From: Candidatus Electrothrix yaqonensis
Lineage (GTDB): Bacteria > Desulfobacterota > Desulfobulbia > Desulfobulbales > Desulfobulbaceae
Assembly: GCA_047651235.1 (NCBI GenBank)
Contig: CP178758.1
Span: 2,490,001-2,522,000 of the forward strand
DNA length: 32,000 bases
Reading direction: 5' to 3'
Position 1 is the stretch's first letter, and the number at the start of each line of letters is the position of its first letter. The translations under genes and the position numbers were made by a program. Below, one piece after another: positions 6,701 to 26,460 of the stretch. The notes beneath the pieces were generated by a model, which had not been told where the DNA came from, ran no database searches, and saw only the letters and a list, made by a program, of their open reading frames with translations.

Positions 6701-7713
6701 GTTCGATAACCAGGGATTTCGGAGGAACCGGTCTCGGTCTTGCCATCAGCAACCGCCTGCTGCAGATGATGGGCAGTGAAATTCATCTGAAAAGCACGCT
6801 CGGCGAAGGAAGTATTTTTTCTTTTACCCTGCTGTTTAAGGAAGGGGCACAGGATACCGACGGTCCCAGGACTCAGAAAAAGCATGTCCCCCCTGATCGC
6901 TGTCTTGATATCCTGCTGGTTGAGGATAATCCTGCCAATCAGCAGCTCGCTCTAATTATTCTTGAAAAGCAGGGACATAATGTCAGCGTAGCCAATAACG
7001 GCCTGGAAACGCTTTCCTGTCTGAGCCGTCAGCGGTATGATCTTATTTTTATGGATATGCAGATGCCGGTGATGGACGGCCTGACCGCCACCCGGCATAT
7101 CCGGCGGATCGAGCAGGGATTTGCGGAAGAATTGCCTGAAATGGCTGCTGTCTCGGAACAGCTTCATGCCAGGCTGACCGGCGGACATGTTTATATTGTT
7201 GCTGTTACGGCCAATGCTATGTATGAGGACCGGAAGCAGTGTCTTGAGGCCGGGATGGATGAGTATCTCAGCAAGCCCTACAAGAAACATGCTCTTCTGA
7301 AAATATTGCACTTATTTGACAAAGAAACTATGTTATCTGTACCGGAGGCGGAAATGACTGAACAGGAAAAAGCCCCGGCTGTCTCATGGAATGAGGTGCT
7401 GGACCATCTTATAGGACAGTTTGAGCTGGAACGCGAAGATGCGGAGGCCGTGCTCGGCACCTATTCCGAATCTCTTGCCCGGAATATCGATATGCTGCGT
7501 GAGTATATCGCCAAGGGAGAGGGGGTGGAGGCCGGACGTCAGGCCCATGCCATGAAGGGAGGGCTGCTTAATCTGGGACTTGAGCAGCTTGCGGAAACAG
7601 CCTTTGCTCTGGAAAAGGAACTCCCCAAGGCAATAGAGAAAAAACATACAGAAATGATCGGGCAGCTTGCTCAGGCTCTTGTCGGGATAACCTCCGGACA
7701 CACCGGTTCCTGA
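3775..7713 (+). CDS. Hybrid sensor histidine kinase (TM-sensor-TM-HAMP-PASx3-HisKA-HATPase_c-REC-Hpt)
   Basis: 1312 aa. There are two TM helices flanking a sensor domain of about 260 aa, and a HAMP-like segment [17 protein letters not shown]. The H-box is [23 protein letters not shown], the N/G boxes are [10 protein letters not shown] and [15 protein letters not shown], the REC is [11 protein letters not shown]...[14 protein letters not shown]...KPY, and the Hpt is [13 protein letters not shown]. The start is ambiguous (ATG 3775, 3802 or 3847) and none has a strong SD. Confidence 0.9.
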
Positions 7714-7746
7714 TACGCCGGATATGCCGGTCGGTCCTCCTGCGGA

Positions 7747-10700
7747 ATGAAGTACGTGAAATACGGCAATCTCCTGCTTCTCTACCTGTTTATAGCCGTC
7801 ACCCTGATTGTGCTTGTCCTGTCCGGAGGAGGCGTTGTCGCGTATAAGTATCAGCAGCGACTTCTGCAGGAAGATATCAGAACCTACCGTTATTCTCTTG
7901 CCCAGGAGGCTGAACGCCTCAGGCAGACACTGCAGCAGATTTTCAGCCTTGCGGAACTGCTGGCGGATAATCCGGTGATCATCAATATGCTGGATAAACG
8001 GCTGCACAGGATTGCGCCATCTCAGGTGGCCGAGCTTATTGTTGAAAAGAATCTGCAGGCAATCGCTGCGGTTGAAAATATTTCCGTCGTTTTTCTGATC
8101 GATCTTGAAGGGGAGTGCATTTATGCCAGTGAACCGGATGCAGTCGGGCGGAATTACAGGCTCAGGAGATATTTCCAAGATGCTGTGCAGCATGAGACCG
8201 GTCTGTATGCTGCCATGAATACTGATACTGAGCCAGCTACCCGACGGACGGAGATGTATTATGCCCGGATCGTCAGAAACGGAACCCTGCCGCTTGGAGT
8301 TGTCGTGCTGAGAATCAGTCCGGATTTTTTTCACCTCCGTTCCTTTGCCGCAGCCTTTACAACCAGGCCTCCGGCGCCGGAGGAAATGCGCATCGGGCTG
8401 TCCGCAGACAAAAATATTATCTTCGGCTCAACAGACAGTCCAGACAGTCTTGTTGCACTCCGTCAGCTTTCAGCAGAACAGCGGCAGTTTCCGCCGGAAA
8501 ACATACAGCCGCTGGGCTTTTCTCTGTCCGGGGTGAACGATCTCATTGCCACGGGTTTTCTCAAGGAAAAAACGCCTGGCGGCAGGGAATATTATCTGTT
8601 CTATCAGCCGCTGTCCGGTAATGATCTCGCTCTGATTCATGTTGTGGCAACTGCATGGTTTGAAAAGTTTTTCCGGCCGGCTTCGCTGAATTATTCAGGC
8701 TATGCCGTCATGCTCTGCCTGATGCTGTTCATTATGCTTGCCCTACTGTATATGCTGAACAGGCGTCATCAACAGGCGATTCTGGCAGCAGCAACTCTTG
8801 AACGTGAAGCAGGGCAGCGGCTTCAGGAAAAAGAAAAATATGAACAGATCATCAACCGGAATCCGCAGGGATTCTGGCTGAATGATTTTAAATCAGGGAT
8901 AATCCTTGAGGTCAATCAGAGCCTCTGCCGACTGCTCGGCCTACCGGCCGAGCAGATTATCGGCCGCCATGTCAACGAGTTCCTGACCATAACCAGCATG
9001 CATCCCGATGACAGGCCCCTCCCGGAAGCCCTGCCTGATGCCTCCAGCGAAGGTACCCTGGGGTACGCTGACGGAACAGCCTCGGATGTGCTGGTTACCT
9101 CTTCCTGCATCATACCGGATGACAGTCGGCGGAAGACCTGTTTTTCTTTTTTTACCGATATCTCAGAAAGAAAAAAGGAGCAGGAACAGCTTTTTCTTTT
9201 TTCCCAGGCAGTGAAGCAGAGTACAAGCGCCATTGTGATTACGGATAAAAATGCTGATGTCGTGTACGTCAACCCGTTTTTCACCGAGCTGACAGGCTAC
9301 AGCCGGTCGGCGATGTACAGCACGAATCCGGCCGTGCTGACCGGCGGAGAAAAGGATACTCCGGTCAGCCAAGAAATCTGGCAGCAGATCAGAAGCGGCG
9401 GCACCTGGAAAGGAGTTCTGCGCAACCGGAAAAAGGACGGTACCCTGTACTGGGAGGGACAGACGGTCTGTCCATTATATGATGCTGCGACCGGGACGAT
9501 CAGTTATTATCTGGCTATCAAACACGATGTGACGGAACGGGTTGAGCTGGAAAAAGAGCTCAAGGCCCAGCTCACCAAACTGGAGCTGATTGTCGAACAT
9601 GCGGCCATAGGTATTGCCCATGTTATTGACCGGCGGTTTGCCTGGGTCAGCAGAGGGGCTGCAGAGATGTTCGGTTACTGTGACAAGGAAGAAATCGCGG
9701 CCATGCCGACATCCGTTATCTTTGAAAATCAAGCGGTTTTTGAAGAGACATATCAGCGCGCCCACAGTGCGTTTGCCGCAGGCAGGATCTTTCAGGAAGA
9801 ACAGCTGATGCAGCGGAAAGACGGAGGCCGTTTCTGGTGTTCGCTGACCGGAAAAATGATTGATCCGACAGAGCCGGAGATGGGGGCCATCTGGCTGACC
9901 AAGGATATCAGCCGCGAGAAAGAGGAAGAACGGCAGCTGCAGCTGGCCAAGGAAAGAGCGGAGCAGGCGAATCAAGCGAAAAGTAATTTTCTGGCCAATA
10001 TGAGTCATGAGATCCGTACCCCCATGCACGCCATCATCGGTATGAGCAGGCTGGCTCTGGAAACCTCTCTTGATGAGCAGCAGCGGTACTATATCGGAAC
10101 GGTCAACAAGGCAGCGGAAGCGCTTCTCGGGCTGCTGAATGATATTCTCGAATTCTCCAAGATAGAGGCGGGCAGGCTGAAGCTGCATCCGAAACCGTTC
10201 GAGCTGGAGGAGTGCGTCCGGGACGCGGTACGGACCCTGGAATATCAGGCTGAGGAGAAAGGGCTGTCTCTGCACTGTGCTGTTGATCCCGGAGTCCCCG
10301 GGTTTGTCTGCGGTGACCCGATGCGGCTGCGCCAGATTCTTGTCAATCTGCTGAACAACAGCATCAAATTCAGTAACCAGGGGACGATATCCGTTCAGGT
10401 TGCCGTGCAGGAACGTACAGAGAATGAGATCGTGCTGGCCTTCCGGGTCAGAGATCACGGTATTGGGATTATGCCGGAGAAGCTGAATGATATTTTTGAA
10501 AAATTTGTCCAAGTCGATACCAGTGCCAGCAGGGGATTTGAGGGTACCGGTCTGGGGCTGACCATATGTTACCGGCTCTGCAGGATGATGGGCGGTGAAA
10601 TCAATGTTCAAAGTGTGCCCGGTCAGGGAAGCACCTTTATTTTTACAGTCCGTTTTCAGCAGGTTCCTGCACTTGATCGGCCTGCCGGGGATGCTGCAGA

Positions 10701-11571
10701 TGAAAAAATCCGGCTTCAGGACTTGCGTATCCTTGTTGTGGATGATAATGAATCAAATAGGTTCCTTGCCAGGGCCATGTTCCAGAAGGACAACCATCAG
10801 ATCGTTGAGGCGGGAGACGGCATGGAAGCTCTGAAAATCCTGCTTGACCATCATTTTGATGTGGTCCTGATGGACGTACAGATGCCTGTTCTGGACGGAC
10901 TCACTGTGACGAAAATTATCCGCGCCTGTGAGCAGAAAAAGCAGCAAAGTTCTCTGGCTGCGGAAAGTCCGCTTCCGGAGGAATTCATGGATGCTTTACA
11001 GTACCGGCTGACCGGCGGTCACACGCCCGTTATTGCCCTGACCGCCCATGCGATGCAGGAGGACAGACAGCGGTGCCTTGAGGCCGGGATGGACGGCTAT
11101 GCTGTCAAGCCGTTTAAAACAGAGGAGATATACCGGGCTTTTCAGCAGACAGGATATGTACAGGATGCCCGGGAACAAAGAGAGGAGGAAAGGACTTCGA
11201 TGAGGGAACAGAAAAAAGAAAACGATAATTTGCTGCTTGCAAATGTTGCTGAACATCTTAAAACTGTATACAGTCTTGAACCTGACCAGGTGGAACAGAT
11301 GATTCAGCTGTCCGCCCGATCGATCAGCGAGACTCTGGAACAGGCCAGGCAGGCTCTGGCTGACAGGGATCTGACAATGCTTTCAGCAGCCGGGCATAAG
11401 GCCAAGGGTATCCTGCTCGGCGTGGGGCTGAAGGAGGATGCGGAGCAGGCCAGAAAGATTGAGGTTGCCGGAAAAGAAGGAGCAGATGCGGATTATCAGG
11501 GGATAATATCCTGTCTGGAGGAAAATCTGCAGCCCCTGCTGCTGCTGTTTTCCGGAGAGCCCAGAAGCTGA
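7747..11571 (+). CDS. Hybrid sensor histidine kinase (TM-Cache-like sensor-TM-PASx3-HisKA-HATPase_c-REC-Hpt)
   Basis: 1274 aa. The H-box is [24 protein letters not shown], the N/G boxes are NLLNNSIKFS and DHGIGI..GTGLGLTI, the REC is ILVVDDNESNR...DVVLMDVQMPVLDG...KPF, and the Hpt is AGHKAKGILLGVG. The domain order matches the preceding kinase. Confidence 0.9.
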   Translation: MKYVKYGNLLLLYLFIAVTLIVLVLSGGGVVAYKYQQRLLQEDIRTYRYSLAQEAERLRQTLQQIFSLAELLADNPVIINMLDKRLHRIAPSQVAELIVEKNLQAIAAVENISVVFLIDLEGECIYASEPDAVGRNYRLRRYFQDAVQHETGLYAAMNTDTEPATRRTEMYYARIVRNGTLPLGVVVLRISPDFFHLRSFAAAFTTRPPAPEEMRIGLSADKNIIFGSTDSPDSLVALRQLSAEQRQFPPENIQPLGFSLSGVNDLIATGFLKEKTPGGREYYLFYQPLSGNDLALIHVVATAWFEKFFRPASLNYSGYAVMLCLMLFIMLALLYMLNRRHQQAILAAATLEREAGQRLQEKEKYEQIINRNPQGFWLNDFKSGIILEVNQSLCRLLGLPAEQIIGRHVNEFLTITSMHPDDRPLPEALPDASSEGTLGYADGTASDVLVTSSCIIPDDSRRKTCFSFFTDISERKKEQEQLFLFSQAVKQSTSAIVITDKNADVVYVNPFFTELTGYSRSAMYSTNPAVLTGGEKDTPVSQEIWQQIRSGGTWKGVLRNRKKDGTLYWEGQTVCPLYDAATGTISYYLAIKHDVTERVELEKELKAQLTKLELIVEHAAIGIAHVIDRRFAWVSRGAAEMFGYCDKEEIAAMPTSVIFENQAVFEETYQRAHSAFAAGRIFQEEQLMQRKDGGRFWCSLTGKMIDPTEPEMGAIWLTKDISREKEEERQLQLAKERAEQANQAKSNFLANMSHEIRTPMHAIIGMSRLALETSLDEQQRYYIGTVNKAAEALLGLLNDILEFSKIEAGRLKLHPKPFELEECVRDAVRTLEYQAEEKGLSLHCAVDPGVPGFVCGDPMRLRQILVNLLNNSIKFSNQGTISVQVAVQERTENEIVLAFRVRDHGIGIMPEKLNDIFEKFVQVDTSASRGFEGTGLGLTICYRLCRMMGGEINVQSVPGQGSTFIFTVRFQQVPALDRPAGDAADEKIRLQDLRILVVDDNESNRFLARAMFQKDNHQIVEAGDGMEALKILLDHHFDVVLMDVQMPVLDGLTVTKIIRACEQKKQQSSLAAESPLPEEFMDALQYRLTGGHTPVIALTAHAMQEDRQRCLEAGMDGYAVKPFKTEEIYRAFQQTGYVQDAREQREEERTSMREQKKENDNLLLANVAEHLKTVYSLEPDQVEQMIQLSARSISETLEQARQALADRDLTMLSAAGHKAKGILLGVGLKEDAEQARKIEVAGKEGADADYQGIISCLEENLQPLLLLFSGEPRS

Positions 11572-11583
11572 GACGGAAAGCAC

Positions 11584-12714
11584 ATGAAAGTCATTTTCTG
11601 TGAAGAGTGCGGCGGGAAAAATATCGTTTCAGATGAACAGCTGGAGCATATTGACACTACACCGCTTGTCTGTCGGTTCTGTGACAATATTATTTCCCAA
11701 GAAACGATAATTCCCCATATTTGTCCGACAGCTCCCATTAATACGCTGCATTATCATCTGCTGATGATTGACGATGATTTTGCCCATCTGCAGCTGATGA
11801 AAACAACGCTGGAAAAAGAATATACAGTATCCATTGCCTCCACCGGCGTGCATGGACTCGAGCTGGCAGCAGAACGGCAGCCTGATCTGATCCTTCTTGA
11901 TCTGGGGATGCCCGGGATGGACGGATATGAGGTCTGCAGGCGGCTGAAGGAAAACCCGACCACCAGAAAGATTACCGTAATTTTTGTCAGTGCACGGGAC
12001 GATAAGGATGATGAGTACCGGGGCTTCACCCTTGGGGCGGTAGATTATATCAACAAACCCATCAATCTGCAGATTCTCAATGCCCGTATTACTGCCCAGC
12101 TCCGCCTCAAGCAGCTGCTGGATCAGCAGAAGAAACAGGCTGACAGCCTGATTCAGTCGCTGCATCAGGACAATATGCAGAGCGAGCTGGACCGGGAGCG
12201 CCTGCAGCAGGAAAAAACCAGCCTGTACGCTGTCCTTGACGCTGTTCAGGATCGGGTTCTTCTGGAAAATGCCGAAAAGAAAATAACATGGGCCAACAAG
12301 GCCATGCGGGATTTCTGCAGTATGCGTCTTTCCGAAATTGTCGGTTCTTCGCGTGATGATCTTTCTCCGGACCGCATACCTGCAGGTTCTGCAGGAACTG
12401 CGGAGGACGTCTGTATCCCTCTGCTGTCCGAAGACGGAGAAGAAAAAGGAAAGGCCCATATTTTTCCGAAAAAAAGCAGTGGACAGATCTGTCAGGCGGC
12501 AGAGTCGGCAGTCAACAGATTTGTCGATAGGAACAGAAAGGCGATACGGGATAATCTGGCCACTATACTTTTCGGGATTGATGCGGTCAGCAGTCTGCTC
12601 AGAGAAAATAAAGAGTTTGAAACCGTCAGCCGTCCTGTCACCAAAGCAGCTGAAGAGCTTGACCGTATGGTGTCTGCCCTGCTGGATGTGCAGCAGAGCG
12701 ACAGCGAGAACTGA
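11584..12714 (+). CDS. Response regulator with N-terminal CxxC..CxxC zinc-ribbon and C-terminal PAS-like plus His-less DHp-like region
   Basis: FCEECGGKN...VCRFCDNII (MJ0042-like zinc ribbon). The REC is LLMIDDD...DLILLDLGMPGMDG...FVSA...NKP. A coiled coil follows, then LYAVLDAVQDRVLLENAEKKITWANKAM (PAS-like) and RKAIRDNLATILFGIDAVSSLL...ELDRMVSALLDV (an H-box-like helix with Lys in place of His). Confidence 0.8.
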   Translation: MKVIFCEECGGKNIVSDEQLEHIDTTPLVCRFCDNIISQETIIPHICPTAPINTLHYHLLMIDDDFAHLQLMKTTLEKEYTVSIASTGVHGLELAAERQPDLILLDLGMPGMDGYEVCRRLKENPTTRKITVIFVSARDDKDDEYRGFTLGAVDYINKPINLQILNARITAQLRLKQLLDQQKKQADSLIQSLHQDNMQSELDRERLQQEKTSLYAVLDAVQDRVLLENAEKKITWANKAMRDFCSMRLSEIVGSSRDDLSPDRIPAGSAGTAEDVCIPLLSEDGEEKGKAHIFPKKSSGQICQAAESAVNRFVDRNRKAIRDNLATILFGIDAVSSLLRENKEFETVSRPVTKAAEELDRMVSALLDVQQSDSEN

Positions 12715-12743
12715 CTGAAAATCGAATAAAAACTATCTGAAGA

Positions 12744-12759
12744 CTGACAACCTGACAAC
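12744..12759. repeat. Tandem 8-mer CTGACAAC x2
   Basis: Read directly from the 175-bp gap between the two response-regulator genes. Confidence 0.8.
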
Positions 12760-12792
12760 CGTCTCCTGATTTCTGATCGCAGAAACCGCAAA

Positions 12793-12822
12793 ATTATGTA
12801 CGTACGCAGGATTATGTACGTA
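12793..12822. repeat. 12-bp direct repeat ATTATGTACGTA x2 (18-bp period), each with a TACGTA/GTAC palindromic core
   Basis: Copies at 12793-12804 and 12811-12822 are identical, 68-97 nt upstream of the ATG at 12890. This is a candidate operator or response-regulator binding site. Confidence 0.85.
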
Positions 12823-12889
12823 TTGAACTTGGCCGGTCCGGGGCGTGGAAGCTCCCGGTTCCCGTTCAGCAGTATTGATACTATTGACA

Positions 12890-13579
12890 ATGAAACATGT
12901 CCTGATTGTTGATGACGACCTTGGTTTTCAGAGATTGCTGGGGATCAGTCTGAAGAAATATAAAAAAGATTTTGACGTGATCCTCTCCAACAACGGAGAG
13001 GAGGCGATCGGTATTCTGAACAGAAAACCTGTTGACCTGATCGTGACGGATCTGCAGATGCCGAAAATTGACGGGTTGACCCTGCTGGCCTATATCAATG
13101 ATGCATTTCCGCGAACTCCCTGTGTAATCATGACGGCGCACTCCACTCCGGAAATTGAGAAACAGTTTGCTCAGACAGGACAGCATCTCCTGAAGAAACC
13201 GTTTACAATCAATAGACTGGTTGAGGCTATTCAGGCAGCGCTGGCGCCGCAGCCTCAGGGGGGGATGCTGAAAGGGATTTCCGTGGCCAATTTTCTGCAG
13301 ATGATTGCTCTGGAACAGAAGACCTGTCTTCTGGAGATCACATCCACAGAGAACGAGAAGGGATTCTTTTATATAGAAAACGGGGAGGTTTTTGATGCTG
13401 TATTCGGGAAGCTGAACGGAGAGGACGCAGCGTATGCCCTGATCGGGCTTGAGGAAGCGAGTATAAGTTTTACAGATCTCCCGACAACCAGGAAGGTGAA
13501 AAAGCGCATCCATGCAGGCCTGATGGCGCTGATCATGGAGGCGATGACCCGTAAGGACGAAACTGTCGGCAATGCCTGA
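12890..13579 (+). CDS. Response regulator, REC + DUF4388 (PATAN-like) domain
   Basis: MKHVLIVDDD...DLIVTDLQMPKIDG...MTAHS...KKPF (REC). This is followed by GISVANFLQMIALEQKTCLLEI....GFFYIENGEVFDAVFG.LNGEDAAYALIGLEEASISF, typical of DUF4388. The ORF opens at GTG 12845, but ATG 12890 gives a canonical REC N-terminus. Confidence 0.85.
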   Translation: MKHVLIVDDDLGFQRLLGISLKKYKKDFDVILSNNGEEAIGILNRKPVDLIVTDLQMPKIDGLTLLAYINDAFPRTPCVIMTAHSTPEIEKQFAQTGQHLLKKPFTINRLVEAIQAALAPQPQGGMLKGISVANFLQMIALEQKTCLLEITSTENEKGFFYIENGEVFDAVFGKLNGEDAAYALIGLEEASISFTDLPTTRKVKKRIHAGLMALIMEAMTRKDETVGNA

Positions 13580-15347
13580 ACCGGACAAGCAGCAGTCTTC
13601 CTGTCATGACCGACCGGCGCCCTATATCCTGCTTGTTGATGATAACCCCAGCGATATCTGCCTGCTCGAATCCATCCTCAGATCACATGGGTTCACCTCT
13701 TTTTCTCTAACCGATCCCACCGGCGTCCCTGCCCAGTGCCGGGCCGCCCGGCCTGAAATTATCCTGCTTGATGTCAGTATGCCTGAAATGAACGGTTTTC
13801 AGGTATGTTCTCAGCTAAAGAGCGATCCGCAGCTTGCCGATATTCCTGTGCTCTTTCTGACCGCCATGAGCAGTGTGGCAGATAAAATCCGGGGATTCAG
13901 GGTCGGCGGTTCTGATTTTCTTGTTAAACCGTATGAGCCGTCCGAACTGATCGCCAGGGTATCCACCCAGATCAGTCTGTGCAGGGCCCGGCAGGAACTT
14001 GCCTGCCGGAACAGAGAACTGAGAAAGGAAATCCGGGATAAAGAGAGGGCGTATGCGGCTTTGGTGGAAAGTGAATCGCGGAATGAGGCTGTGCTCAATA
14101 ATGCGGCGGTCTGCATAGGGCTTCTTGGCATTGACGGCACCTATGAAATGGTGAACGGTTTGTATGCCGAAGTTTTCGGGTATGCACAGGAAGAATTTCA
14201 GAACATGCGGATGCTGGACATCATTCATCCGGATTATATTGCAGCGACCGTAGAGACCATGACCCTTCTGCGGACCGGCAGGCAGGAGCAGCATTATATG
14301 AGCAAACAGTTTATCCGTAAGGACGGGTCGGTTTTTCCGGGAGGACACTGGCTCAGTTCCTGGCGGACAGGGGAGGGCAGCTGCAGCGGTTTTGTCTGTA
14401 TTATCAGTGACCGGACAGAGCAGAAAAAAGCAGAAGATAAACTGCGGCTCGCCCATACGGTGTTTGAAACCAGTTCAGAAGGTATGCTGGTGACAGATGC
14501 GGAAAACCGGATTGTCATGGTTAATCCTGCTTTTACGGCAATTACCGGGTATCAGCGCGACCAGGTGATCGGCAGAGAACCGTCTTTTCTCAAGTCGGAC
14601 CGGCATGACACCAGGTTTTACCGCAGGATGTGGGTTACTCTTCTGCGCAGCAACCGCTGGCAGGGGGAAATATGGAACCGCCGGCAGAACGGCGAGGTCT
14701 ATCCCCAGTGGCTTTCTCTTGCGGTTATCCGCAGCCCGGATGCACGTATTGTCAACTATGTGGCGTTATTTTCCGATATCAGTGAGCGGAAAAAGGCCGA
14801 AGAAGTACTCCGGTATCAGGCGATGCATGATCCCCTGACCAACCTGCCCAATCGGCTGATGTTTGATGACCGGCTGCGTACTTCTCTGTCCCGAGCAAAG
14901 CGAAAAAAGAGCAGAGTGGCGCTGCTGTATCTGGATCTGGATAATTTTAAAACCATTAATGATACCCTGGGGCATCTTGTCGGTGACCGGGTTCTGCAGA
15001 TGGTGGCGGAACGATTGCGGGAATGCCTGCGGCTTGAAGATATGATCGCCCGGATCGGCGGGGATGAATTTTCCGCTGTGCTTGATGATATCACCTCAGC
15101 AGGACATGCGGTCTGCATCGCAGAGCGTATCATTGCCGCGTTTTCTGAGCTTAATTGCGTTGTGGACAATGCATCTCTTCAGACAAGTATCGGTATTGCC
15201 TTGTACCCGGATCACGGCTCAGACACGGAGACGTTGCTGCGTCGTGCTGATGATGCCATGTATACGGCCAAGCAGTTCGGCAAAGGGTGCTGTTTTCTTG
15301 CCGGGAACGGTGGTGCCGGGACATCATCGGAGGACTCGGAGGTCTGA
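13572..15347 (+). CDS. Response regulator diguanylate cyclase (REC-PAS-PAS-GGDEF)
   Basis: ILLVDDNPSD...EIILLDVSMPEMNG...KPY (REC), then two PAS/PAC units. The GGDEF domain has DPLTNLPNR, LDLDNFKTINDTLGH and RIGGDEF, and an I-site RLED lies 5 residues upstream of GGDEF. The ATG overlaps the upstream stop (ATGCCTGA). Confidence 0.9.
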   Translation: MPEPDKQQSSCHDRPAPYILLVDDNPSDICLLESILRSHGFTSFSLTDPTGVPAQCRAARPEIILLDVSMPEMNGFQVCSQLKSDPQLADIPVLFLTAMSSVADKIRGFRVGGSDFLVKPYEPSELIARVSTQISLCRARQELACRNRELRKEIRDKERAYAALVESESRNEAVLNNAAVCIGLLGIDGTYEMVNGLYAEVFGYAQEEFQNMRMLDIIHPDYIAATVETMTLLRTGRQEQHYMSKQFIRKDGSVFPGGHWLSSWRTGEGSCSGFVCIISDRTEQKKAEDKLRLAHTVFETSSEGMLVTDAENRIVMVNPAFTAITGYQRDQVIGREPSFLKSDRHDTRFYRRMWVTLLRSNRWQGEIWNRRQNGEVYPQWLSLAVIRSPDARIVNYVALFSDISERKKAEEVLRYQAMHDPLTNLPNRLMFDDRLRTSLSRAKRKKSRVALLYLDLDNFKTINDTLGHLVGDRVLQMVAERLRECLRLEDMIARIGGDEFSAVLDDITSAGHAVCIAERIIAAFSELNCVVDNASLQTSIGIALYPDHGSDTETLLRRADDAMYTAKQFGKGCCFLAGNGGAGTSSEDSEV

Positions 15348-15485
15348 AGCTGCTGCTCCGCTGTCTGTGAAGGGAAATAAGAATCTGCTGGGGAATATTG
15401 CTGGAGAGGGAGAGCAACCGGATCACCCGGAAGCAGGGATGAATCAGGACACCTGCAGTGTCCGCTGAACAAGGAGGAGAAAATA

Positions 15486-17303
15486 ATGGCCGCAGCAAAG
15501 AAAAAACATGATTGTCCGTTACTGAAGTTTTTTCAGGGAGATTGTACCTGTTCCGCACCCGAACCGGAGCAGAAACCGGAACAGAAGGAGGATGATCCGG
15601 CTCCTGTACAGCCGCAACCGCCGGTAGAGGCAGCTGGCCAGGGGAAATCCCAAGAAGACTCCGGCGGTACTGCCCAGGTGGAAAAGGCTGAGGAGAAGAA
15701 GGAAAACGCTCCGCAGACCGATGTTCCCGCCCAGCCGGAGCCGCCGGTAGAGGCAACCGATCAGGAGAAGTCTGACGATACTCCCCAGGTGGAGGAGAGT
15801 GAGACTGAAAAACAGGAAAAGGAGGAGAACAGTCCGCAGGAAGATGAAGCGGTGATCAATGCTGCTCTGCAGGAATGTCAGAAGGATACTCCGGCATTTA
15901 TGGACAGACTGCCAGCCAAGTTTGATCCAGAGGGAAAGCGACTTGATCAAGGGACAGGCCTTTTTACTGAGGAGGCCATCAGGGAAAAGGAATTTATTCC
16001 GGCCCGTGATGACAAGCGGCAAGAGCTGACAGAGCTGGATGCGATTACAGCTGGCAGGGCTGCCTTTGCCGAGAATGATCAGGCGGACGGCTTTGTGGAC
16101 ACCTTCCGTCATGCCGGACTGAAGAGCATGGAGAATAACGGCCTGATGGGCGCCAGACTGCCTGAGCAGCCCTGGTCTGATGATTACTGGGCAATCTATC
16201 TGGGAATGCTCGGCAAACGCTATGCTGATCCGGGATTTCCCGGTGAATGGGACTGGAAGGTGAATTATGATTATATTCAGAGAAATCCGGCCCAACAGAT
16301 TGTGGCGAATGGAGACTCCAATGCCATAAACCGGCTTTCCCCGTCGGAAAAATACGATATTCTGGTCGGTGATGCGAATATGTCGCTCACTAAAAAAATG
16401 TGGGAGGAAGGAAAAGGGTATTATTCCCGGAACGGCACGGTGGAAACCTGGATGGGCCTCTGTCACGGCTGGGCACCGGCTGCGTATATGCTTCCCCGCC
16501 CGAAAAGAAGCGTCACGGTTCCTGCGGCGGACGGCAAAACTTCCATCACTTTTTACCCTGCTGATATCAAAGCGCTTGCCACCCTGCTCTGGGCCAAAGT
16601 CAGAACCACGACCGAATTTATCGGCGGCCGCTGTAATGACAAAAATCCGGCACGGGATCCGCAGACCGGACGTATTATCTCGCAGAACTGCTTTGATACC
16701 AATCCAGGTTCCTGGCATCTGGCCGTAGTCAACCAGATCGGTGCTTCACAGCGCAGTATGGTGCTGGATGCCACCTACGATTATGAGGTCTGGAATCAGC
16801 CCCTTGTTGCATATAACTACAGATATTTTAATCCGCAGAGAATGGTGTATGCCCGTTCTCTGCCTGAAGCGTCTGTGCTGAAGAGCAGTTTCGGCAATGA
16901 CTGGTTTATCCGCTACCGCAGTGGGGAAACCGAGACCATTGTCGGCATTGCAATGGATGTTTCCTATATGGTGGAAACCAGTCCTGCACAGTATTCCACA
17001 GACAGCGCCGCCCGGGACCGGGTGCAGACAGTGCGGTATTATTATGATCTTGAGCTTGATTTTACCGGGAATATTATCGGTGGCGAATGGTATCAGAATG
17101 CGCATCCGGATTTTCTCTGGACCCCTGTTAAAGGAGCCAGAGCCCTGACGTACTGGGAAGCCAGATATGGCCTGAGCGGAACATGGGAGGGGAACCAGCC
17201 GATGAATGAAGACTGGAGGCGGGTTGCTGCAACGATATCCGGATATCAGAAAGCACCCTTGGCTGCCATTGTGGAGCGGCTGATAGAATTGGCCAATGTT
17301 TAA
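15486..17303 (+). CDS. GP42/Pep-13-type transglutaminase family protein (TGase_elicitor-like), paralog 1, with acidic Q/K/P/E-rich N-terminal tail
   Basis: 605 aa with a strong RBS, AAGGAGGAG, before the ATG. Motifs are WMGLCHGWAPAAY, PGSWHLAVVNQIG and LDATYDYEVWNQPLVAYNYRY; compare Pep-13, VWNQPVRGFKVYE. No signal peptide is present. Confidence 0.75.
   Translation: MAAAKKKHDCPLLKFFQGDCTCSAPEPEQKPEQKEDDPAPVQPQPPVEAAGQGKSQEDSGGTAQVEKAEEKKENAPQTDVPAQPEPPVEATDQEKSDDTPQVEESETEKQEKEENSPQEDEAVINAALQECQKDTPAFMDRLPAKFDPEGKRLDQGTGLFTEEAIREKEFIPARDDKRQELTELDAITAGRAAFAENDQADGFVDTFRHAGLKSMENNGLMGARLPEQPWSDDYWAIYLGMLGKRYADPGFPGEWDWKVNYDYIQRNPAQQIVANGDSNAINRLSPSEKYDILVGDANMSLTKKMWEEGKGYYSRNGTVETWMGLCHGWAPAAYMLPRPKRSVTVPAADGKTSITFYPADIKALATLLWAKVRTTTEFIGGRCNDKNPARDPQTGRIISQNCFDTNPGSWHLAVVNQIGASQRSMVLDATYDYEVWNQPLVAYNYRYFNPQRMVYARSLPEASVLKSSFGNDWFIRYRSGETETIVGIAMDVSYMVETSPAQYSTDSAARDRVQTVRYYYDLELDFTGNIIGGEWYQNAHPDFLWTPVKGARALTYWEARYGLSGTWEGNQPMNEDWRRVAATISGYQKAPLAAIVERLIELANV
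15597..15845 (+). repeat. In-frame tandem duplication (about 123 nt / 41 aa x2) encoding an acidic P/Q/E/K-rich low-complexity region
   Basis: The 15-mer CCGCCGGTAGAGGCA occurs at 15618-15632 and 15741-15755. The peptide units are PAPVQPQPPVEAAGQGKSQED...ENAPQTD and VPAQPEPPVEATDQEKSDD...ENSPQED. Confidence 0.8.
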
Positions 17304-18351
17304 CTTTATTGATTTTTTTACATCCAGGTACCGGAAGATGCAGCCGAAACAGGAAGAACATCATGCCGTGGTCATCGGGATCAACGAGTACAGCGAGTAT
17401 CCTGCACTCAAGGGGCCAGTAACGGATGCCGAGGACTTTTACGCATGGCTCTGCGACCAGGAGGGCGGGAATCTGCCGGAAGAAAATATCCGGCGCCTGC
17501 TCTCTTCTGAAAGCGGGATAGAACAAAACGCTCTCACCCCGAACCGGATCGAGGCGCTGTTTGAACCCTTTGTCACTGCCGGTGTGCAGGGCAGGTTCGG
17601 CGAGCGGCTCTACGTGTTTATTGCCGGGCACGGGTTCGGGGATGCCGGAGATATGGGCCGTACAGCTCTGTATGCCGCCAATGCCAAAAAGCTGTTTCCC
17701 TGGCATGTGGCAGTGACGGATTATGTGGAATGGCTGCGGCGGCGGGCTGTTTTTGCCGAACTCGTGCTGATTATGGATTGCTGCCGCACGGTTAATCCGG
17801 TACATATGATCCGGGAACCGCAGTATCCCTTTATTGCCCGAAGAGGCGGGCACCCGGACGCGGACAAGGTGAAGTATTTCTATGCCTTTGCTGTGAGCAG
17901 AGGAAAGATCGCCAGAGAACGGCGGTTTGAGGATGGCCAGGAAGCCGGAATTTTTACCAGAACCCTGCTGAACGCTCTGAAAACCGCGCGTCCGGTCAAA
18001 GGACAGGTGACCGGGCAGGCATTGAAAGATCAGATTCATAATACGATTGACAAATTTGCCGATCAAGTGCAGATTGATCCTCCGGAGATCAGACTGGATT
18101 CGTCTCGGGATATTACTTTTCTGCGCCGTAAGTCGGCTGATTCGATGCCGGTCAGGGTCGTCGTGGAACCGTACAGGGGAGGGGAGACGTTGGTCCTTTT
18201 TGACGGCAGCTTCCGGGAAATTAGACGGGAACAGACTTCTGCCGCCACCACGACGCTGGAGCTGGAGCCGGGACTGTACAAACTTGCGGTCAGCGAGACA
18301 GGCCGTCAGCAGATATTTGAGGTGCCGAGTCATGAGCAGATTACAGTGTAG
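17296..18351 (+). CDS. Caspase-like cysteine protease (peptidase C14 / orthocaspase-like) with C-terminal beta-sandwich-like module
   Basis: HAVVIGINEY...L.GPVTDAEDF...LYVFIAGHG (His-Gly) ...LVLIMDCCRT (Asp-Cys). The C-terminal roughly 70 aa end in LELEPGLYKLAV. The ATG overlaps the upstream stop by 8 nt (ATGTTTAA); an alternative start is ATG 17338. Confidence 0.8.
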   Translation: MFNFIDFFTSRYRKMQPKQEEHHAVVIGINEYSEYPALKGPVTDAEDFYAWLCDQEGGNLPEENIRRLLSSESGIEQNALTPNRIEALFEPFVTAGVQGRFGERLYVFIAGHGFGDAGDMGRTALYAANAKKLFPWHVAVTDYVEWLRRRAVFAELVLIMDCCRTVNPVHMIREPQYPFIARRGGHPDADKVKYFYAFAVSRGKIARERRFEDGQEAGIFTRTLLNALKTARPVKGQVTGQALKDQIHNTIDKFADQVQIDPPEIRLDSSRDITFLRRKSADSMPVRVVVEPYRGGETLVLFDGSFREIRREQTSAATTTLELEPGLYKLAVSETGRQQIFEVPSHEQITV

Positions 18352-19474
18352 AGATCAGGTCAACCTGACAGTCAGAGCAGCGGACCTCCTGACCGAAATT
18401 TTTCTGGTGGACAGCGGCTTTCAGCGCATCGCCAGTGATGTCGGTCAGCTGGAGACAAAAATCGGGCCGGGTATATATAAGGCCCGTTTCCGGGTCGGAC
18501 AGCGGCAGATTGATCAGCTGATCGAAGTGAAAGCCGGAGCCGGGTCGTTGATTCTTGACGGCCCGGCTGTGGAGTTTGCTTCACCTGCTCCGCTGCCGCA
18601 GACTCTCACCCATCGGAAGAAGCATCAGGAGGCAGCACAGGACTTCTCCTGCGCTGTTCATCTCGAAAAAGGTAGCGGCAGTCAGCTGTACCTCTTTATC
18701 CGGGGACTGGAGGAATCTGCCCCGGCTCCCTGGACCGGCGTGTCATTACATGATCTTGACGGCAACTGGCTTGCCGGGCCGGAGCAAGGTGAATGTAACC
18801 AGGAGGACAACTTTTTCGCCCTCAATCTTGCACTTGATCCGGGCACCTACCGGTTGCGGGTTGAGGAAGAGCCGGGTGAAACTTATGAAATGTTTGTCAT
18901 CACGGCGGCAGGATGGCAGACGCAGATTTTTGCTCTGACAGAGGCTGGCTGGCTGCCGGGAGTTGAGACCTGCCGGGCTGCCCTGCCTACAGCGTCGGTA
19001 TTCATGGTCCGGGAAGGACAAGGTTTTACACCGGATGACGCTGCGTTCCGTCGGACGGAACTGCGTCGGCTCGGCCTGATGAGCAGGCGTAAGATCCTGA
19101 CGGAACGCACCGTAAACAGCCTGCTGAAAGAGCTGTCTCCGGATCCGATGGCGGCAATTTTTGCCGCCCATCTGCTGATGCGGCAGGAGCCTGCTGATTC
19201 TGCTGCTGCAACACTGCTGACCAAAGGACTGGCCCCGACCCTCAGAGAGCATCCGGATATTCAGGCCCTGCAACTGCACCAGGAACCGGGTATCCGGCCT
19301 GTTTTTCCGGCTCCGCCTATGCTCAACTTCAGCAGGGAATGTCTTGCGCAGGCAGCGGCCCGGGGAAAAGTCATTATCCCGCCGGGATCACTGACCTGGC
19401 AGATCATGGAGAAACAGGTCAATACTCCGTTGTGGTTTGTGCACCGGCTGGACAATATGGCTGCCGAAAAGTAA
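18332..19474 (+). CDS. Hypothetical protein: two beta-sandwich-like modules plus a helical C-terminal half
   Basis: The ORF is open from 18047, but ATG 18332 lies 7 nt after GAGGTG, and the upstream extension is Arg-rich out-of-frame junk. It overlaps the caspase gene by 20 nt. It contains GPGIYKARF and DPGTYRLRV motifs resembling the caspase C-terminus. I recognise no family. Confidence 0.6.
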   Translation: MSRLQCRDQVNLTVRAADLLTEIFLVDSGFQRIASDVGQLETKIGPGIYKARFRVGQRQIDQLIEVKAGAGSLILDGPAVEFASPAPLPQTLTHRKKHQEAAQDFSCAVHLEKGSGSQLYLFIRGLEESAPAPWTGVSLHDLDGNWLAGPEQGECNQEDNFFALNLALDPGTYRLRVEEEPGETYEMFVITAAGWQTQIFALTEAGWLPGVETCRAALPTASVFMVREGQGFTPDDAAFRRTELRRLGLMSRRKILTERTVNSLLKELSPDPMAAIFAAHLLMRQEPADSAAATLLTKGLAPTLREHPDIQALQLHQEPGIRPVFPAPPMLNFSRECLAQAAARGKVIIPPGSLTWQIMEKQVNTPLWFVHRLDNMAAEK

Positions 19475-19540
19475 TTCGGTTACCGGGCCGGGAAGAACAA
19501 TATCCCGGTCTTACTCAAGAAAAATCAGGAGGAAGGAATC

Positions 19541-21016
19541 ATGTCCGCAGTACAGGAAGAGCAGATGAACGAGGAGTTGAAGGCGTGTCAGGAGAATCCT
19601 GTGGAATTCATGGATCGGCTGCCGCCCAAGTATGATGGAGACGGAGAGACTCTGGATTCTTCCGGAGAGAGCCTGTTTGAGCAGGCTGCTGTTGAGAGCG
19701 GTGACCATATTGAGGCCCGTGATGTTCTGCGGCAGCAGGTAACCGTTAAGGATGAAGTCGCTGTGGGGCGGGCCGCTTTTGCGGATAACGATCAGGCAGA
19801 TGGCTTTGTCGATTCATTTCGTTATGCAGGCCTGCAGAGCATGGAGGCCAACGGCCTCATGCAGGGCGGGCTGAGTGAGTCGCCCTGGTCGGATGATTAT
19901 TGGGCTTTATATTCAGGATCGCTGGGAAAACGTTATGCAGACCCTGCTTTTCCCGGTTCTCAAGACTGGAAAGCGAACTACGATTACGTGCAGGCCCACT
20001 CCGCAGCCGGAATCTTAGGGAGCGGAAATACGGATGCGGTCAACCGGCTTTCCCCGGCGGAAAAATATGACATTCTGGTAGGTGACAGTGACTATTCGCT
20101 GACCCGGCAGATGTGGGAACTGGGAAGAACATACTATGTCCGCAACGGCAAAGTGGAAACATGGATGGGCCTCTGCCACGGCTGGGCACCGGCTGCCTAT
20201 ATGCTGCCCCGTCCGACAGGGACTGCCACTGTCCTGGCGGCAGACGGTCGAACCCGCCTCACCTTTTATCCTTCTGATATCAAAGCACTCGCCACCTTGC
20301 TCTGGGCAAAGACGAAATATAGCTCCCGGTTTATCGGCGGCCGCTGCAATGACCGCAATCCGGCAAAAGATCCGCAGAGCGGCCGGGTGCTTTCACAGAC
20401 ATGTTTTGATACCAATCCCGGCACCTGGCATCTGGCGGTCGTGAACCAGATCGGCGGGTCGCAGCGCAGCATGGTTATGGATGCCACCTATGATTATCAG
20501 GTCTGGAATCAACCGGTGGTGTCGTACAGCTATCGGTATTTCAACCCGAAAACCATGACCTATGCCGGTTCGCCGACAGAGGCTGCAGTGTCGCTCAGTA
20601 CGTTTGCCGAGGACAGGTTTGCCCGCTTCCGCAGCAGTGAAACAGACAGCATTGTCGGTATTATGATGGAGGCGAAATATACCGTCGAGACTGCTCCCAC
20701 GCACAATTCAACGGACAGCCCGGCGCGTGATCAGCTCAAGGCGGTCCGCTATTATTATGATCTTGAACTGGATTTTACCGGCAACATTATCGGCGGAGAA
20801 TGGTATCAGAATGCCCACCCGGATTTTCTCTGGACGCCTGTACAGGGCGAACGGGCCGTGACCTCCGGAGAAAAAAGATATCCGCTCAGCGGTTCCTGGC
20901 AGAGCGGCCAGACCATGCCGCAATCCTGGCAGCAGCTCGCCTCTATGGTGGCCAGGTATGAACAGGCCCCTCTTGCTGTGATTGTGGAGCAGCTGATCGC
21001 GTTTTCCAAGAGCTAA
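19541..21016 (+). CDS. GP42/Pep-13-type transglutaminase family protein (TGase_elicitor-like), paralog 2
   Basis: 491 aa with RBS AGGAGGAAGG. It is collinear with residues from about 121 to the end of paralog 1. Motifs are WMGLCHGWAPAAY, PGTWHLAVVNQIG and MDATYDYQVWNQPVVSYSYRY. No signal peptide and no acidic tail. Confidence 0.8.
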   Translation: MSAVQEEQMNEELKACQENPVEFMDRLPPKYDGDGETLDSSGESLFEQAAVESGDHIEARDVLRQQVTVKDEVAVGRAAFADNDQADGFVDSFRYAGLQSMEANGLMQGGLSESPWSDDYWALYSGSLGKRYADPAFPGSQDWKANYDYVQAHSAAGILGSGNTDAVNRLSPAEKYDILVGDSDYSLTRQMWELGRTYYVRNGKVETWMGLCHGWAPAAYMLPRPTGTATVLAADGRTRLTFYPSDIKALATLLWAKTKYSSRFIGGRCNDRNPAKDPQSGRVLSQTCFDTNPGTWHLAVVNQIGGSQRSMVMDATYDYQVWNQPVVSYSYRYFNPKTMTYAGSPTEAAVSLSTFAEDRFARFRSSETDSIVGIMMEAKYTVETAPTHNSTDSPARDQLKAVRYYYDLELDFTGNIIGGEWYQNAHPDFLWTPVQGERAVTSGEKRYPLSGSWQSGQTMPQSWQQLASMVARYEQAPLAVIVEQLIAFSKS

Positions 21017-25622: not shown

Positions 25623-26438
25623 GTGACAGCACAAACTGTATCTCCGCACAAAACAACTTTGGACAAAGGAAATGCCTACTGGATGGCCAGGATGGCCGAA
25701 GCGGTCTACATGAAAGTAGACAACGGTACACGACCGGACGAAGAAAAGATTCTTCAGGGTCTGAAACAGGAGGATGACAGATTTTCTTCCGTAACCGGTT
25801 TTGACAATAAAAGCTCCCAAGCAGCCCTGGTGGAGCATAACGATTATATCTGCATGGCCTTCCGGGGCACCGATGAGCTGGAAGACTGGCTGGACAATAT
25901 AAAAATCACTGCAACCAAGCAGCTGTTCGGCCATTTTCATCTCGGATTCTGGGAAGCTGTGCAGGACATCTGGCCGCCCATGCTTGCCTGTTATGAGGAG
26001 GCGCAGAAGAACGGCAGCCGTCCGCTTTTTATTACCGGTCACAGTCTGGGCGGAGCTATGGCGACCATAGCTGCGGCCATTATGATGCATGAAAATAAAG
26101 CTGTTGCCAGTGTCTATACTTTCGGTCAGCCCCGAACCATGCGGCCGCTTACCTCAATGAAGTTCAATACTAAGTGTAAAAATATTTTTTTCCGATTTCA
26201 TAATAACAATGATATTGTCACCAGAATTCCCGCAAGGATAGCCGGTTACAGTCATGTCGGCACCTACCTCTATATCTCCCAGGAAGAGACCATTTATGAA
26301 GAAGTAGGGTGCTGGTTCAGATTTCTTGATTATGTTGACGGAGCGATCAGTGATTTGGGAGAAAAGGGCATGGATATGCTCAAGGACCATAGTATGAAGA
26401 ACTATCTGGAAGCAGTCAAAAAGTGGGACTTTAAGTGA
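25623..26438 (+). CDS. Class 3 lipase / alpha-beta hydrolase (Lipase_3 family)
   Basis: GTG start after AGGAGA. AFRGTDELEDWLDN, a nucleophile elbow ITGHSLGGAMA, FHNNNDIVTRIP (catalytic Asp region), and DHSMKNY (catalytic His region). Confidence 0.8.
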   Translation: MTAQTVSPHKTTLDKGNAYWMARMAEAVYMKVDNGTRPDEEKILQGLKQEDDRFSSVTGFDNKSSQAALVEHNDYICMAFRGTDELEDWLDNIKITATKQLFGHFHLGFWEAVQDIWPPMLACYEEAQKNGSRPLFITGHSLGGAMATIAAAIMMHENKAVASVYTFGQPRTMRPLTSMKFNTKCKNIFFRFHNNNDIVTRIPARIAGYSHVGTYLYISQEETIYEEVGCWFRFLDYVDGAISDLGEKGMDMLKDHSMKNYLEAVKKWDFK

Positions 26439-26460
26439 TCTTTTCTGACAGATTCTCCTC

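Follow-up and report, generated by a model that had tools for sequence, protein, structure and literature searches.

In a 32,000-nucleotide stretch of the genome of Candidatus Electrothrix yaqonensis (contig CP178758.1, positions 2,490,001 to 2,522,000; hereafter the window), we analyzed a four-gene cassette at positions 15486-21016. It encodes two transglutaminases of the type of Phytophthora GP42, and between them a caspase-family protease and a partner protein that we refer to as gene 3. The host belongs to the cable bacteria, members of the Desulfobulbaceae that form multicellular filaments and conduct electricity. The cassette had been noticed in an earlier inspection of the letters (hereafter the sequence-only reading), and this core observation is confirmed. 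Across genomes, the conserved core of the locus is the caspase and gene 3, not the transglutaminases; the enzyme encoded beside this pair is polymorphic, and a transglutaminase occupies the third position recurrently and non-obligately. On balance, we interpret the cassette as the cable-bacterial form of a widespread three-part module, in which a constant caspase–gene 3 core is combined with an interchangeable enzyme and which would act by protease licensing.

The four open reading frames lie on the forward strand of the window, as do all features described below, and were all present where the sequence-only reading had placed them. Gene 1 (15486-17303, 605 amino acids (aa)) is the upstream transglutaminase and consists of an extra N-terminal module followed by a TGase_elicitor core. 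Gene 2 (17296-18351, 351 aa) encodes the orthocaspase-like cysteine protease, with a C-terminal beta-sandwich-like domain. Gene 3, the constant caspase partner, follows at 18332-19474 (380 aa), and gene 4 (19541-21016, 491 aa) is the downstream transglutaminase, without the N-terminal module of gene 1. The junctions had been described as overlaps of 8 and 20 nucleotides (nt) and a gap of 66 nt. The 20-nt overlap between genes 2 and 3 and the 66-nt gap stand, and the caspase and gene 3 are translationally coupled. The 8-nt overlap between genes 1 and 2 is soft, because it hinges on where gene 2 is taken to begin: the public gene call has 17338 as its first position (337 aa), and distant homologs align from there. 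The ATG of gene 3 (18332) sits within a longer TTG-initiated reading frame.

We surveyed one-genome-per-species contigs with gene 3 as the anchor and located relatives of all four proteins in the resulting 39 loci. The caspase and gene 3 are adjacent and on the same strand in 38 of the 39, usually with an overlap of 14-20 nt. Besides cable bacteria, the loci come from a Crocosphaera metagenome-assembled genome (MAG), several Gammaproteobacteria (including Thiocystis violacea DSM 208), Holophagae, Desulfuromonadales, Chlorobium, Planctomycetota, Roseovarius, Mariprofundus, Verrucomicrobia, Myxococcales, Flavobacteriales, Longimicrobium and Calidithermus (Deinococcota). Single polypeptides in which Peptidase_C14 is followed by a gene 3 region also occur (P0289, P0332, P0335 and, at locus L133, a 901-aa protein of Sinorhizobium terangae). 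Because of this adjacency, the overlap, the fusions and the wide spread, we regard the caspase and gene 3 as the conserved unit. The linkage expected by the sequence-only reading in related genomes is thus conserved for this pair, and the link to the transglutaminases is recurrent without being obligate. No conserved sensor gene (STAND NTPase, beta-propeller, vWA-MoxR or CRISPR) lies beside the core in the fetched loci, and the neighbors vary.

The third gene differs between lineages. In all 19 non-cable genome loci with room upstream, a gene for a 480-530-aa protein directly precedes the caspase. Pfam gives only sub-threshold Abhydrolase_6 matches for this family, and it has no NCBIfam or PADLOC family; its alignment, in which HFHGG, GHS(T)G, an Asp and HGDFD are invariant, identifies it as an alpha/beta serine hydrolase. 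We also considered that this ~490-aa protein might be a divergent transglutaminase, and ruled this out on the basis of the alignment and of a BLASTP comparison that found no similarity. The hydrolases of loci L028-L048 (for example L030:4538-6004) contain a poorly conserved insert of ~110 residues, flanked by conserved sites in which Arg or Lys precedes a small residue, one of them an invariant [RK]-G. On the Sinorhizobium mexicanum plasmid pEmeITTGR7b (L135), the core pair is followed by a gene for a protein with Endonuclease_NS and Trypsin domains. On the Mesorhizobium onobrychidis plasmid pOM4 (L132), beside IS21, a hydrolase and a caspase are followed by a 1449-aa protein that combines a gene 3-like N-terminus with Trypsin_2 and PLDc_2. 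The partners in this plasmid-borne, distantly related group (the L132-L135 set) are of a death type, and they also include an astacin-like metallopeptidase that precedes a caspase–gene 3 fusion.

A transglutaminase is the third partner in cable bacteria (in all but one draft), in the Crocosphaera MAG, where it lies downstream, in a Desulfobacca MAG and in the metagenomic loci L063, L068, L085 and L088. In Thiocystis, a transglutaminase gene lies downstream of the core on the opposite strand, and the hydrolase is retained. Where the upstream flank is visible in transglutaminase-bearing loci (L003, L085 and L088), the hydrolase is absent. The window cassette has no alpha/beta-hydrolase gene beside the caspase either, and transglutaminases stand in its place. 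An adaptor domain common to the transglutaminase and the Sinorhizobium endonuclease–trypsin protein was looked for and not found. The combination of a constant core, swappable enzymes, patchy occurrence across phyla and plasmid copies is the signature of biological conflict systems.

The protease assignment of gene 2 is supported by its match to Peptidase_C14 (33.1 bits, E=5.8e-8; gathering cut-off 21.4). In PADLOC-DB v2 it matches only the generic 'caspase' model (1e-13), and its best NCBIfam match, NF047832 (caspase_w_EACC1), reaches 49.5 bits, below the cut-off of 140. The catalytic His is located in a G-H-G motif (codon 17629-17631) and is invariant in 17 homologs from many phyla. The Cys pair of the motif IMDCCRT is encoded at 17779-17784, and in some of the 17 homologs the first Cys is replaced by Ser or Ala. 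Because D-x-C-R is invariant among them, the second Cys (17782-17784) is assigned as the catalytic residue; the His–Cys dyad named in the sequence-only reading is therefore borne out and its Cys narrowed to one of the pair. The Asp two residues before the catalytic Cys and the Asp of the motif GPxND are likewise invariant in these homologs. These two residues are reminiscent of the acidic S1 pocket of metacaspases, and they may point to Arg/Lys specificity. By sequence, the caspase has no relative among solved structures at E values up to 1. Its C-terminal 80 residues carry a PGLYK motif; the two beta-sandwiches of gene 3 contain similar stretches, PGIYKARFR and PGTYRLRV.

Gene 3 has no match in Pfam, NCBIfam or PADLOC. 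Its product shows 100% identity to a protein from the MAG of Candidatus Electrothrix sp. YB6. Its AlphaFold2 model (predicted local distance difference test score, pLDDT, 91) comprises two beta-sandwiches, at residues 10-76 and 117-227, and a helical domain at residues 237-358; the sequence-only reading had recognized a sandwich fold and missed the helical domain. The Foldseek comparison that it suggested returned no specific relative in the Protein Data Bank (PDB): the whole model matched only generic Ig-like or prealbumin-like beta-sandwiches there, with TM-scores below 0.2. A known or death-like fold in the helical domain is unsupported, as a separate model of this domain (pLDDT 73.5) gave nothing below E=1 against the PDB in Foldseek. 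A profile search with gene 3 reached 2,710 cluster representatives (clustering at 50% identity), of which 1,469 scored below E=1e-30, and non-cable homologs carry ~100 extra C-terminal residues. This family appears to lack annotation in Pfam, NCBIfam and PADLOC; it could correspond to CATASP, the caspase-associated regulator component cited by Evans et al. (bioRxiv 2025).

Distant relatives of gene 3 (23-28% identity) accompany caspases on large plasmids or replicons of M. onobrychidis (pOM4, L132), S. terangae (L133), Cupriavidus campinensis (L134) and S. mexicanum (L135). The only locus seen with a broken core pair is L007/L008, where a divergent lone relative of gene 3 (8001-9458, 28% identity) lies between an RND efflux operon and a pyrroloquinoline quinone (PQQ) dehydrogenase gene, with no caspase nearby. 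Cultured hosts of related modules include T. violacea DSM 208, Roseovarius sp. D22-M7, Calidithermus roseus and the strains that carry the rhizobial plasmids.

Both transglutaminases match the Pfam profile TGase_elicitor (PF16683; gathering cut-off 25), gene 1 with 131.3 bits (E=4.9e-38) over residues 223-548 and gene 4 with 131.9 bits (E=3.3e-38). The profile searches proposed in the sequence-only reading thus came out above the cut-offs for both enzyme families, and the motifs and codon positions it quoted are all correct. Gene 4 also matches the sequence of the GP42 structure (PDB: 3TW5) with a phmmer E value of 1e-24. The two genes are paralogs, as had been proposed, with 64% identity over 484 aa and 71.7% over 1235 nt; it is because of this similarity in DNA that two antisense reading frames of 73 aa each (16553-16774 and 20266-20487) mirror each other.

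The active site of GP42 contains an unusual 'CH' motif, in which a His directly follows the catalytic Cys (PMC10318531). The same arrangement is found in the GLCHGW motif of both paralogs, at Cys326-His327 of gene 1 (codons 16461-16466) and Cys212-His213 of gene 4 (codons 20174-20179), and its Cys aligns with the catalytic position of GP42, which is a Ser in the crystallized 3TW5 chain. Among 79 homologs, the Cys is present in 79 and the adjacent His in 78. The His of the WHLAVV motif is, like that of the CH motif, essentially invariant, and two candidates for the third catalytic residue, Asp314 and Asp318 (gene 4 numbering), are invariant. Of the Cys-His-Asp triad assembled in the sequence-only reading, each residue is therefore conserved, and its choice of the WHLAVV His conflicts with the published CH site. 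Two further points of that reading fared well: the catalytic Cys and His are near-invariant in the transglutaminase homologs and invariant in the 17 caspase homologs, and VWNQPV lines up with the beginning of Pep-13 in the 3TW5 sequence. We found no signal peptide or hydrophobic segment in the window transglutaminases or in seven bacterial homologs inspected. None of the four cassette proteins contains a 19-residue segment above a Kyte-Doolittle value of 1.31 or a hydrophobic N-terminus, in agreement with the absence of signal peptides and membrane helices noted before. From these sequence features, the products of genes 1 and 4 are probably cytoplasmic.

The upstream paralog's N-terminal region (15486-15850) was compared with that of L011, L015, L018, L021-L024 and L027. 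It contains the motif KKKHDCPLLKFFQG (15498-15539), which is confined to the upstream paralog of cable bacteria; across the translations 5' of the core in 16 cable-bacteria loci, the consensus is M-x-T-P-x-K-K-H-[ND]-C-x-[LI]-L-x-[FL]-F-[KQ]-G. After it comes a variable linker, which is acidic and Pro-rich in Electrothrix and contains long Cys/His-rich runs in Electronema, such as HSHHHDHGHGHHHDHEHPH. These runs look like metal-binding tails, and they are notable in that cable bacteria build nickel-containing conductive fibers. Two stand-alone homologs from Thiothrix (P0176 and P0201) carry long Pro/Thr-rich low-complexity C-terminal tails and then a short conserved WW(R/E)RLL...G motif, features that are absent from the cable-bacteria transglutaminases.

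The link between transglutaminase and core is loose in one direction and persistent in the other. The transglutaminase family is large (>4,000 matches), and the caspase–gene 3 pair accompanies it in 11 of 80 metagenomic loci. Among the 27 metagenomic loci that extend 2.5 kb or more to either side, the pair is present in three, and 24 have neither caspase nor gene 3. The link is kept at loci whose caspase and gene 3 have diverged to 39-47% and 33-37% identity, respectively, with the proteins of the window. In a neighbor-joining tree, the caspase-linked transglutaminases form one clade, a grouping that is only suggestive. Taken together, these comparisons support the view of a functional tie between the transglutaminase genes and the caspase. 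The coupling proposed in the sequence-only reading thus recurs, in cable bacteria and in five or more further lineages, and it does not extend to the family as a whole, whose members are mostly stand-alone elsewhere and do not belong to the conserved core.

In Electrothrix, the cassette is embedded in a fixed neighborhood. Eight Electrothrix species share the gene order response regulator, PatA-type response regulator, REC-PAS-GGDEF protein, transglutaminase, caspase, gene 3, transglutaminase, DUF374 protein and ApbA, and the gene 4 orthologs at the same position in Electrothrix species are 71-73% identical. Electronema retains transglutaminase, caspase and gene 3 in other surroundings, and in most cases it lacks the second transglutaminase. 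Between species, the cassette proteins are less conserved (gene 3 49-61%, caspase 57-67%, transglutaminases 47-74% identity) than their neighbors (PatA-type regulator 85-88%, DUF374 protein 75-80%). The proposal that the upstream phosphorelay has the cassette as its output draws support from synteny with the REC-PAS-GGDEF gene only within Electrothrix; this arrangement is absent in Electronema and in all other lineages. Split tblastn matches in three loci, namely L014 at 5568-5586 (E. marina upstream transglutaminase), L016 at 6643-6685 (E. aarhusensis caspase) and L018 at 9368-9383 (Electronema nielsenii downstream transglutaminase), suggest frameshifts, which may be assembly errors or the decay of single genes in some genomes.

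A mechanism can be proposed by analogy with characterized protease–effector modules. In Lysobacter capsici, LcCaspase cuts the LcHydrolase zymogen between Arg and Gly at two sites, and the cut enzyme kills the cell (Evans et al., bioRxiv 2025). We infer a comparable sequence of events for the cassette, in which gene 3 would hold the protease or sense the trigger, and would control or target the protease. A trigger such as infection or cell damage would render the protease, which is probably Arg/Lys-specific, active, and the protease would then license the partner enzymes. The active papain-fold enzymes could cross-link or deamidate cytoplasmic proteins, which may arrest or kill the cell to the benefit of the filament or clone. 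In the Electrothrix form of the module, the transglutaminase is duplicated and flanks the caspase–gene 3 core.

For the transglutaminases, licensing might consist of a cut after the Arg of a GRAAF motif, which is Arg191 in gene 1 (codon 16056-16058) and, at the aligned position, Arg77 in gene 4 (codon 19769-19771). This Arg is present in 36 of 37 caspase-linked and 19 of 36 stand-alone transglutaminases, and a Phe at +3 from it in 36 of 37 versus 10 of 36, a bias that may be partly due to relatedness. We consider this residue a candidate cleavage site for an Arg-specific caspase homolog. When residues separating linked from stand-alone transglutaminases were sought, one weak position passed a strict filter, and the GRAAF Arg and Phe were found on inspection.

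Several observations count against a protease-licensed conflict module. Apart from the GRAAF motif, no residue separates linked from stand-alone transglutaminases, so a dedicated zymogen relationship is unproven, and the tree in which the linked sequences form one clade has no support values. No relative of the transglutaminase was found on viral contigs, which also led us to discard a phage origin of the gene. PADLOC-DB v2 offers no matching model for genes 1, 3 and 4, for the hydrolase or for the distant gene 3 homologs. The hydrolase of the related loci, at ~490 aa versus ~300 aa for LcHydrolase, is a putative relative of that enzyme. Fixation of the cassette in Electrothrix beside housekeeping and signaling genes is unusual for mobile defense islands. 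Finally, close homologs of the transglutaminase in genomes of Thiothrix and Thiolinea (55% identity) stand alone among housekeeping genes, and Electronema sp. JM (L019) has the core pair only, between ilvBN/psd/SDR genes and a methyltransferase gene, with no adjacent transglutaminase. These last two findings, together with the 24 of 27 well-flanked metagenomic loci that lack caspase and gene 3 and the near-indistinguishable sequences of linked and stand-alone enzymes, would also be expected if the transglutaminase genes were mere neighbors of an independent caspase–gene 3 pair, with an unrelated cytoplasmic function of their own. We nevertheless consider such chance proximity very unlikely. 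The link outlasts the divergence of the core described above, with the genes on the same strand and at operon-like spacing; the linked transglutaminases fall into one clade; a transglutaminase occupies slots that other effectors fill elsewhere and replaces the hydrolase where the flank is visible; and within the cassette, neighboring genes overlap or are separated by 66 nt, and the gaps contain no terminator-like site.

A second alternative concerns the purpose of the module. The cassette may have a developmental or maintenance role in the filament rather than an anti-phage one, such as the retirement of damaged cells, the formation of 'ghost' cells, fragmentation, or the sealing of dead-cell contents by cross-linking, with the caspase and transglutaminases acting on the cell's own proteins under the neighboring two-component and cyclic di-GMP genes. 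It would explain why the cassette is found across the cable-bacterium genomes recovered (one draft lacking an adjacent transglutaminase) with fixed synteny in eight Electrothrix, and it accords with the close homologs in housekeeping neighborhoods of other filamentous sulfur oxidizers (Thiothrix and Thiolinea). A 2025 study of inactive cable-bacteria 'ghost' cells raises deliberate cell death and cites caspase-domain genes of unknown function, and a strong enrichment of systems of this kind in multicellular prokaryotes was reported by Kaur, Burroughs, Iyer and Aravind (eLife 2020). However, the core also occurs in many unicellular lineages and on conjugative plasmids, where nuclease, PLD and hydrolase proteins accompany it, a signature of conflict systems, and the synteny with the signaling genes is lost in Electronema. 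We therefore regard a filament role as rather unlikely; it is compatible with a protease-licensed module and differs from it mainly in trigger and beneficiary, and the fixed, near-universal occurrence among cable bacteria accords equally with filament biology and with phage defense. A more far-reaching version, which we think improbable, is that the caspase–gene 3 complex activates both transglutaminases, which would cross-link the cell contents to an inert plug and leave dead, still-conducting ghost cells that protect the filament. It is also conceivable that the module operates as proposed but that the GP42-like proteins are papain-fold peptidases or glutamine deamidases acting on a specific essential target, like many bacterial papain-fold toxins. 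GP42 belongs to the papain-like superfamily, whose peptidases, amidases and deamidases share the same Cys-His chemistry (PMC10318531), and the bacterial proteins are only distantly related to the oomycete enzyme, as the phmmer value above indicates. Yet they share the active-site motif and the surrounding Pep-13 region with the characterized transglutaminase, and no sequence feature argues for a changed reaction. We doubt, accordingly, that a different chemistry applies.

If the cassette is a protease-licensed module, it belongs to an emerging dominant theme in prokaryotic immunity and cell death, that of protease-gated effector modules. The locus points to a large unannotated family of caspase partners (gene 3) and to an unlisted effector class, the cytoplasmic GP42-type transglutaminase. 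It offers a concrete candidate gene set for deliberate cell death and the origin of ghost cells in cable bacteria, and a bacterial setting for an enzyme family otherwise known mainly as an oomycete elicitor of plant immunity. If the plug idea were true, bacteria would have an equivalent of the cross-linking by transglutaminase seen in apoptotic animal cells, and for the first time a prokaryotic death effector would work by cross-linking, as opposed to pore formation, nuclease or NADase activity. The cultured hosts make the related core modules testable.

Upstream of the cassette, a 138-nt spacer separates gene 1 from the REC-PAS-GGDEF gene. It contains an AGGAGG ribosome-binding site (15472-15477), 8 nt before the ATG of gene 1, and no terminator-like site, the nearest lying at 15278-15292 inside the GGDEF gene. 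Shine-Dalgarno-like sites also precede gene 3 (GAGGTG) and gene 4 (AGGAGGAAGG). Promoter and terminator scans inside the cassette gave nothing informative, and the intergenic gaps contain no terminator-like site. The window region 3775-15347 is a same-strand signaling cluster with two hybrid sensor kinases of ~1300 aa (one with dCache, PAS, HisKA and REC domains), a REC protein, a PatA-type REC protein and the REC-PAS-GGDEF protein. Synteny of these last three with the cassette holds in eight Electrothrix species and not in Electronema. Further downstream (25623-30675), after two PilT-like ATPase genes, a Lipase_3-family gene is directly followed by a gene for a 1404-aa protein with a weak match to nSTAND_NTPase5 (precomputed Pfam annotation). 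This pair looks like a second, separate conflict system consisting of an effector and a STAND NTPase.

Against catalogued anti-phage systems, the cassette gave only the generic PADLOC 'caspase' match and the sub-cut-off NCBIfam match, and we rejected membership in any of them. The EACC1–caspase systems (NF047832) are nevertheless instructive, as they provide the best NCBIfam match of the caspase domain and likewise consist of two genes, with a constant component beside the caspase. They differ in that the match remains at 49.5 bits against a cut-off of 140 and that the cassette contains no EACC1-like single-helix or small membrane protein, gene 3 being soluble and structurally unrelated.

The transglutaminases themselves are comparable to the Ca2+-dependent Phytophthora enzyme GP42 (3TW5) and its Vibrio homologs in their profile match of ~131 bits, the CH motif and the VWNQPV start of Pep-13. 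Unlike GP42, the window proteins have no signal peptide and are probably not of the secreted, cell-wall type. The bacterial proteins also have ~110 extra N-terminal residues, with a further module in gene 1, and are set in a protease operon. To our knowledge, transglutaminase activity in the GP42 family has been measured for the oomycete enzyme only. Elsewhere, protease-activated transglutaminase zymogens are represented by factor XIII, which is activated by thrombin, and by the Streptomyces pro-transglutaminase, and cross-linking by TG2 occurs in apoptotic animal cells. Protease licensing of a cross-linker and cross-linking in cell death are therefore established principles; the enzymes concerned belong to unrelated folds and families, are eukaryotic or secreted bacterial proteins, and we claim no homology to them.

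The sequence-only reading had stated that no described bacterial system couples cross-linking enzymes to a caspase-like protease. This holds for the transglutaminase as partner: we found no paper coupling a GP42-type transglutaminase to a caspase-like protease, linking cable bacteria with a transglutaminase, or linking PF16683 with bacteria. Neither Kaur et al. (2020) nor Evans et al. (2025) mentions a GP42-type transglutaminase, and their 'transglutaminase-like peptidases' are a different family. It does not hold for the pairing of a caspase with a latent effector, which these studies already describe for alpha/beta-hydrolases; in the systems of Kaur et al., caspase domains always occur with a neighboring alpha/beta-hydrolase gene, a pairing that was predicted. 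We found the three-part module under no name in the literature, and it appears to fit the known protease–effector logic with a new effector class and a constant partner.

The cassette resembles these hydrolase–caspase modules in that a caspase-family protease gene lies beside that of a latent enzyme partner, with swappable partners and patchy occurrence across phyla. Its relatives carry the very pairing, with the hydrolase directly upstream of the caspase in 19 loci, and the conserved [RK]-G in the variable insert of these hydrolases resembles the Arg-Gly cleavage motif, which fits the protease-activation idea of Evans et al. (2025). In contrast to those modules, the window protease has neither a fusion nor a link to a sensor of the STAND NTPase, beta-propeller, vWA-MoxR or CRISPR type; gene 3 is its constant partner, and the cable-bacteria locus is vertically inherited and fixed. 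Moreover, GP42-type transglutaminases are present instead of the hydrolase. Since the hydrolase is absent and transglutaminases occupy its slot, the window cassette is best described as a relative of the hydrolase–caspase modules with a swapped effector, rather than as a strict member of them.

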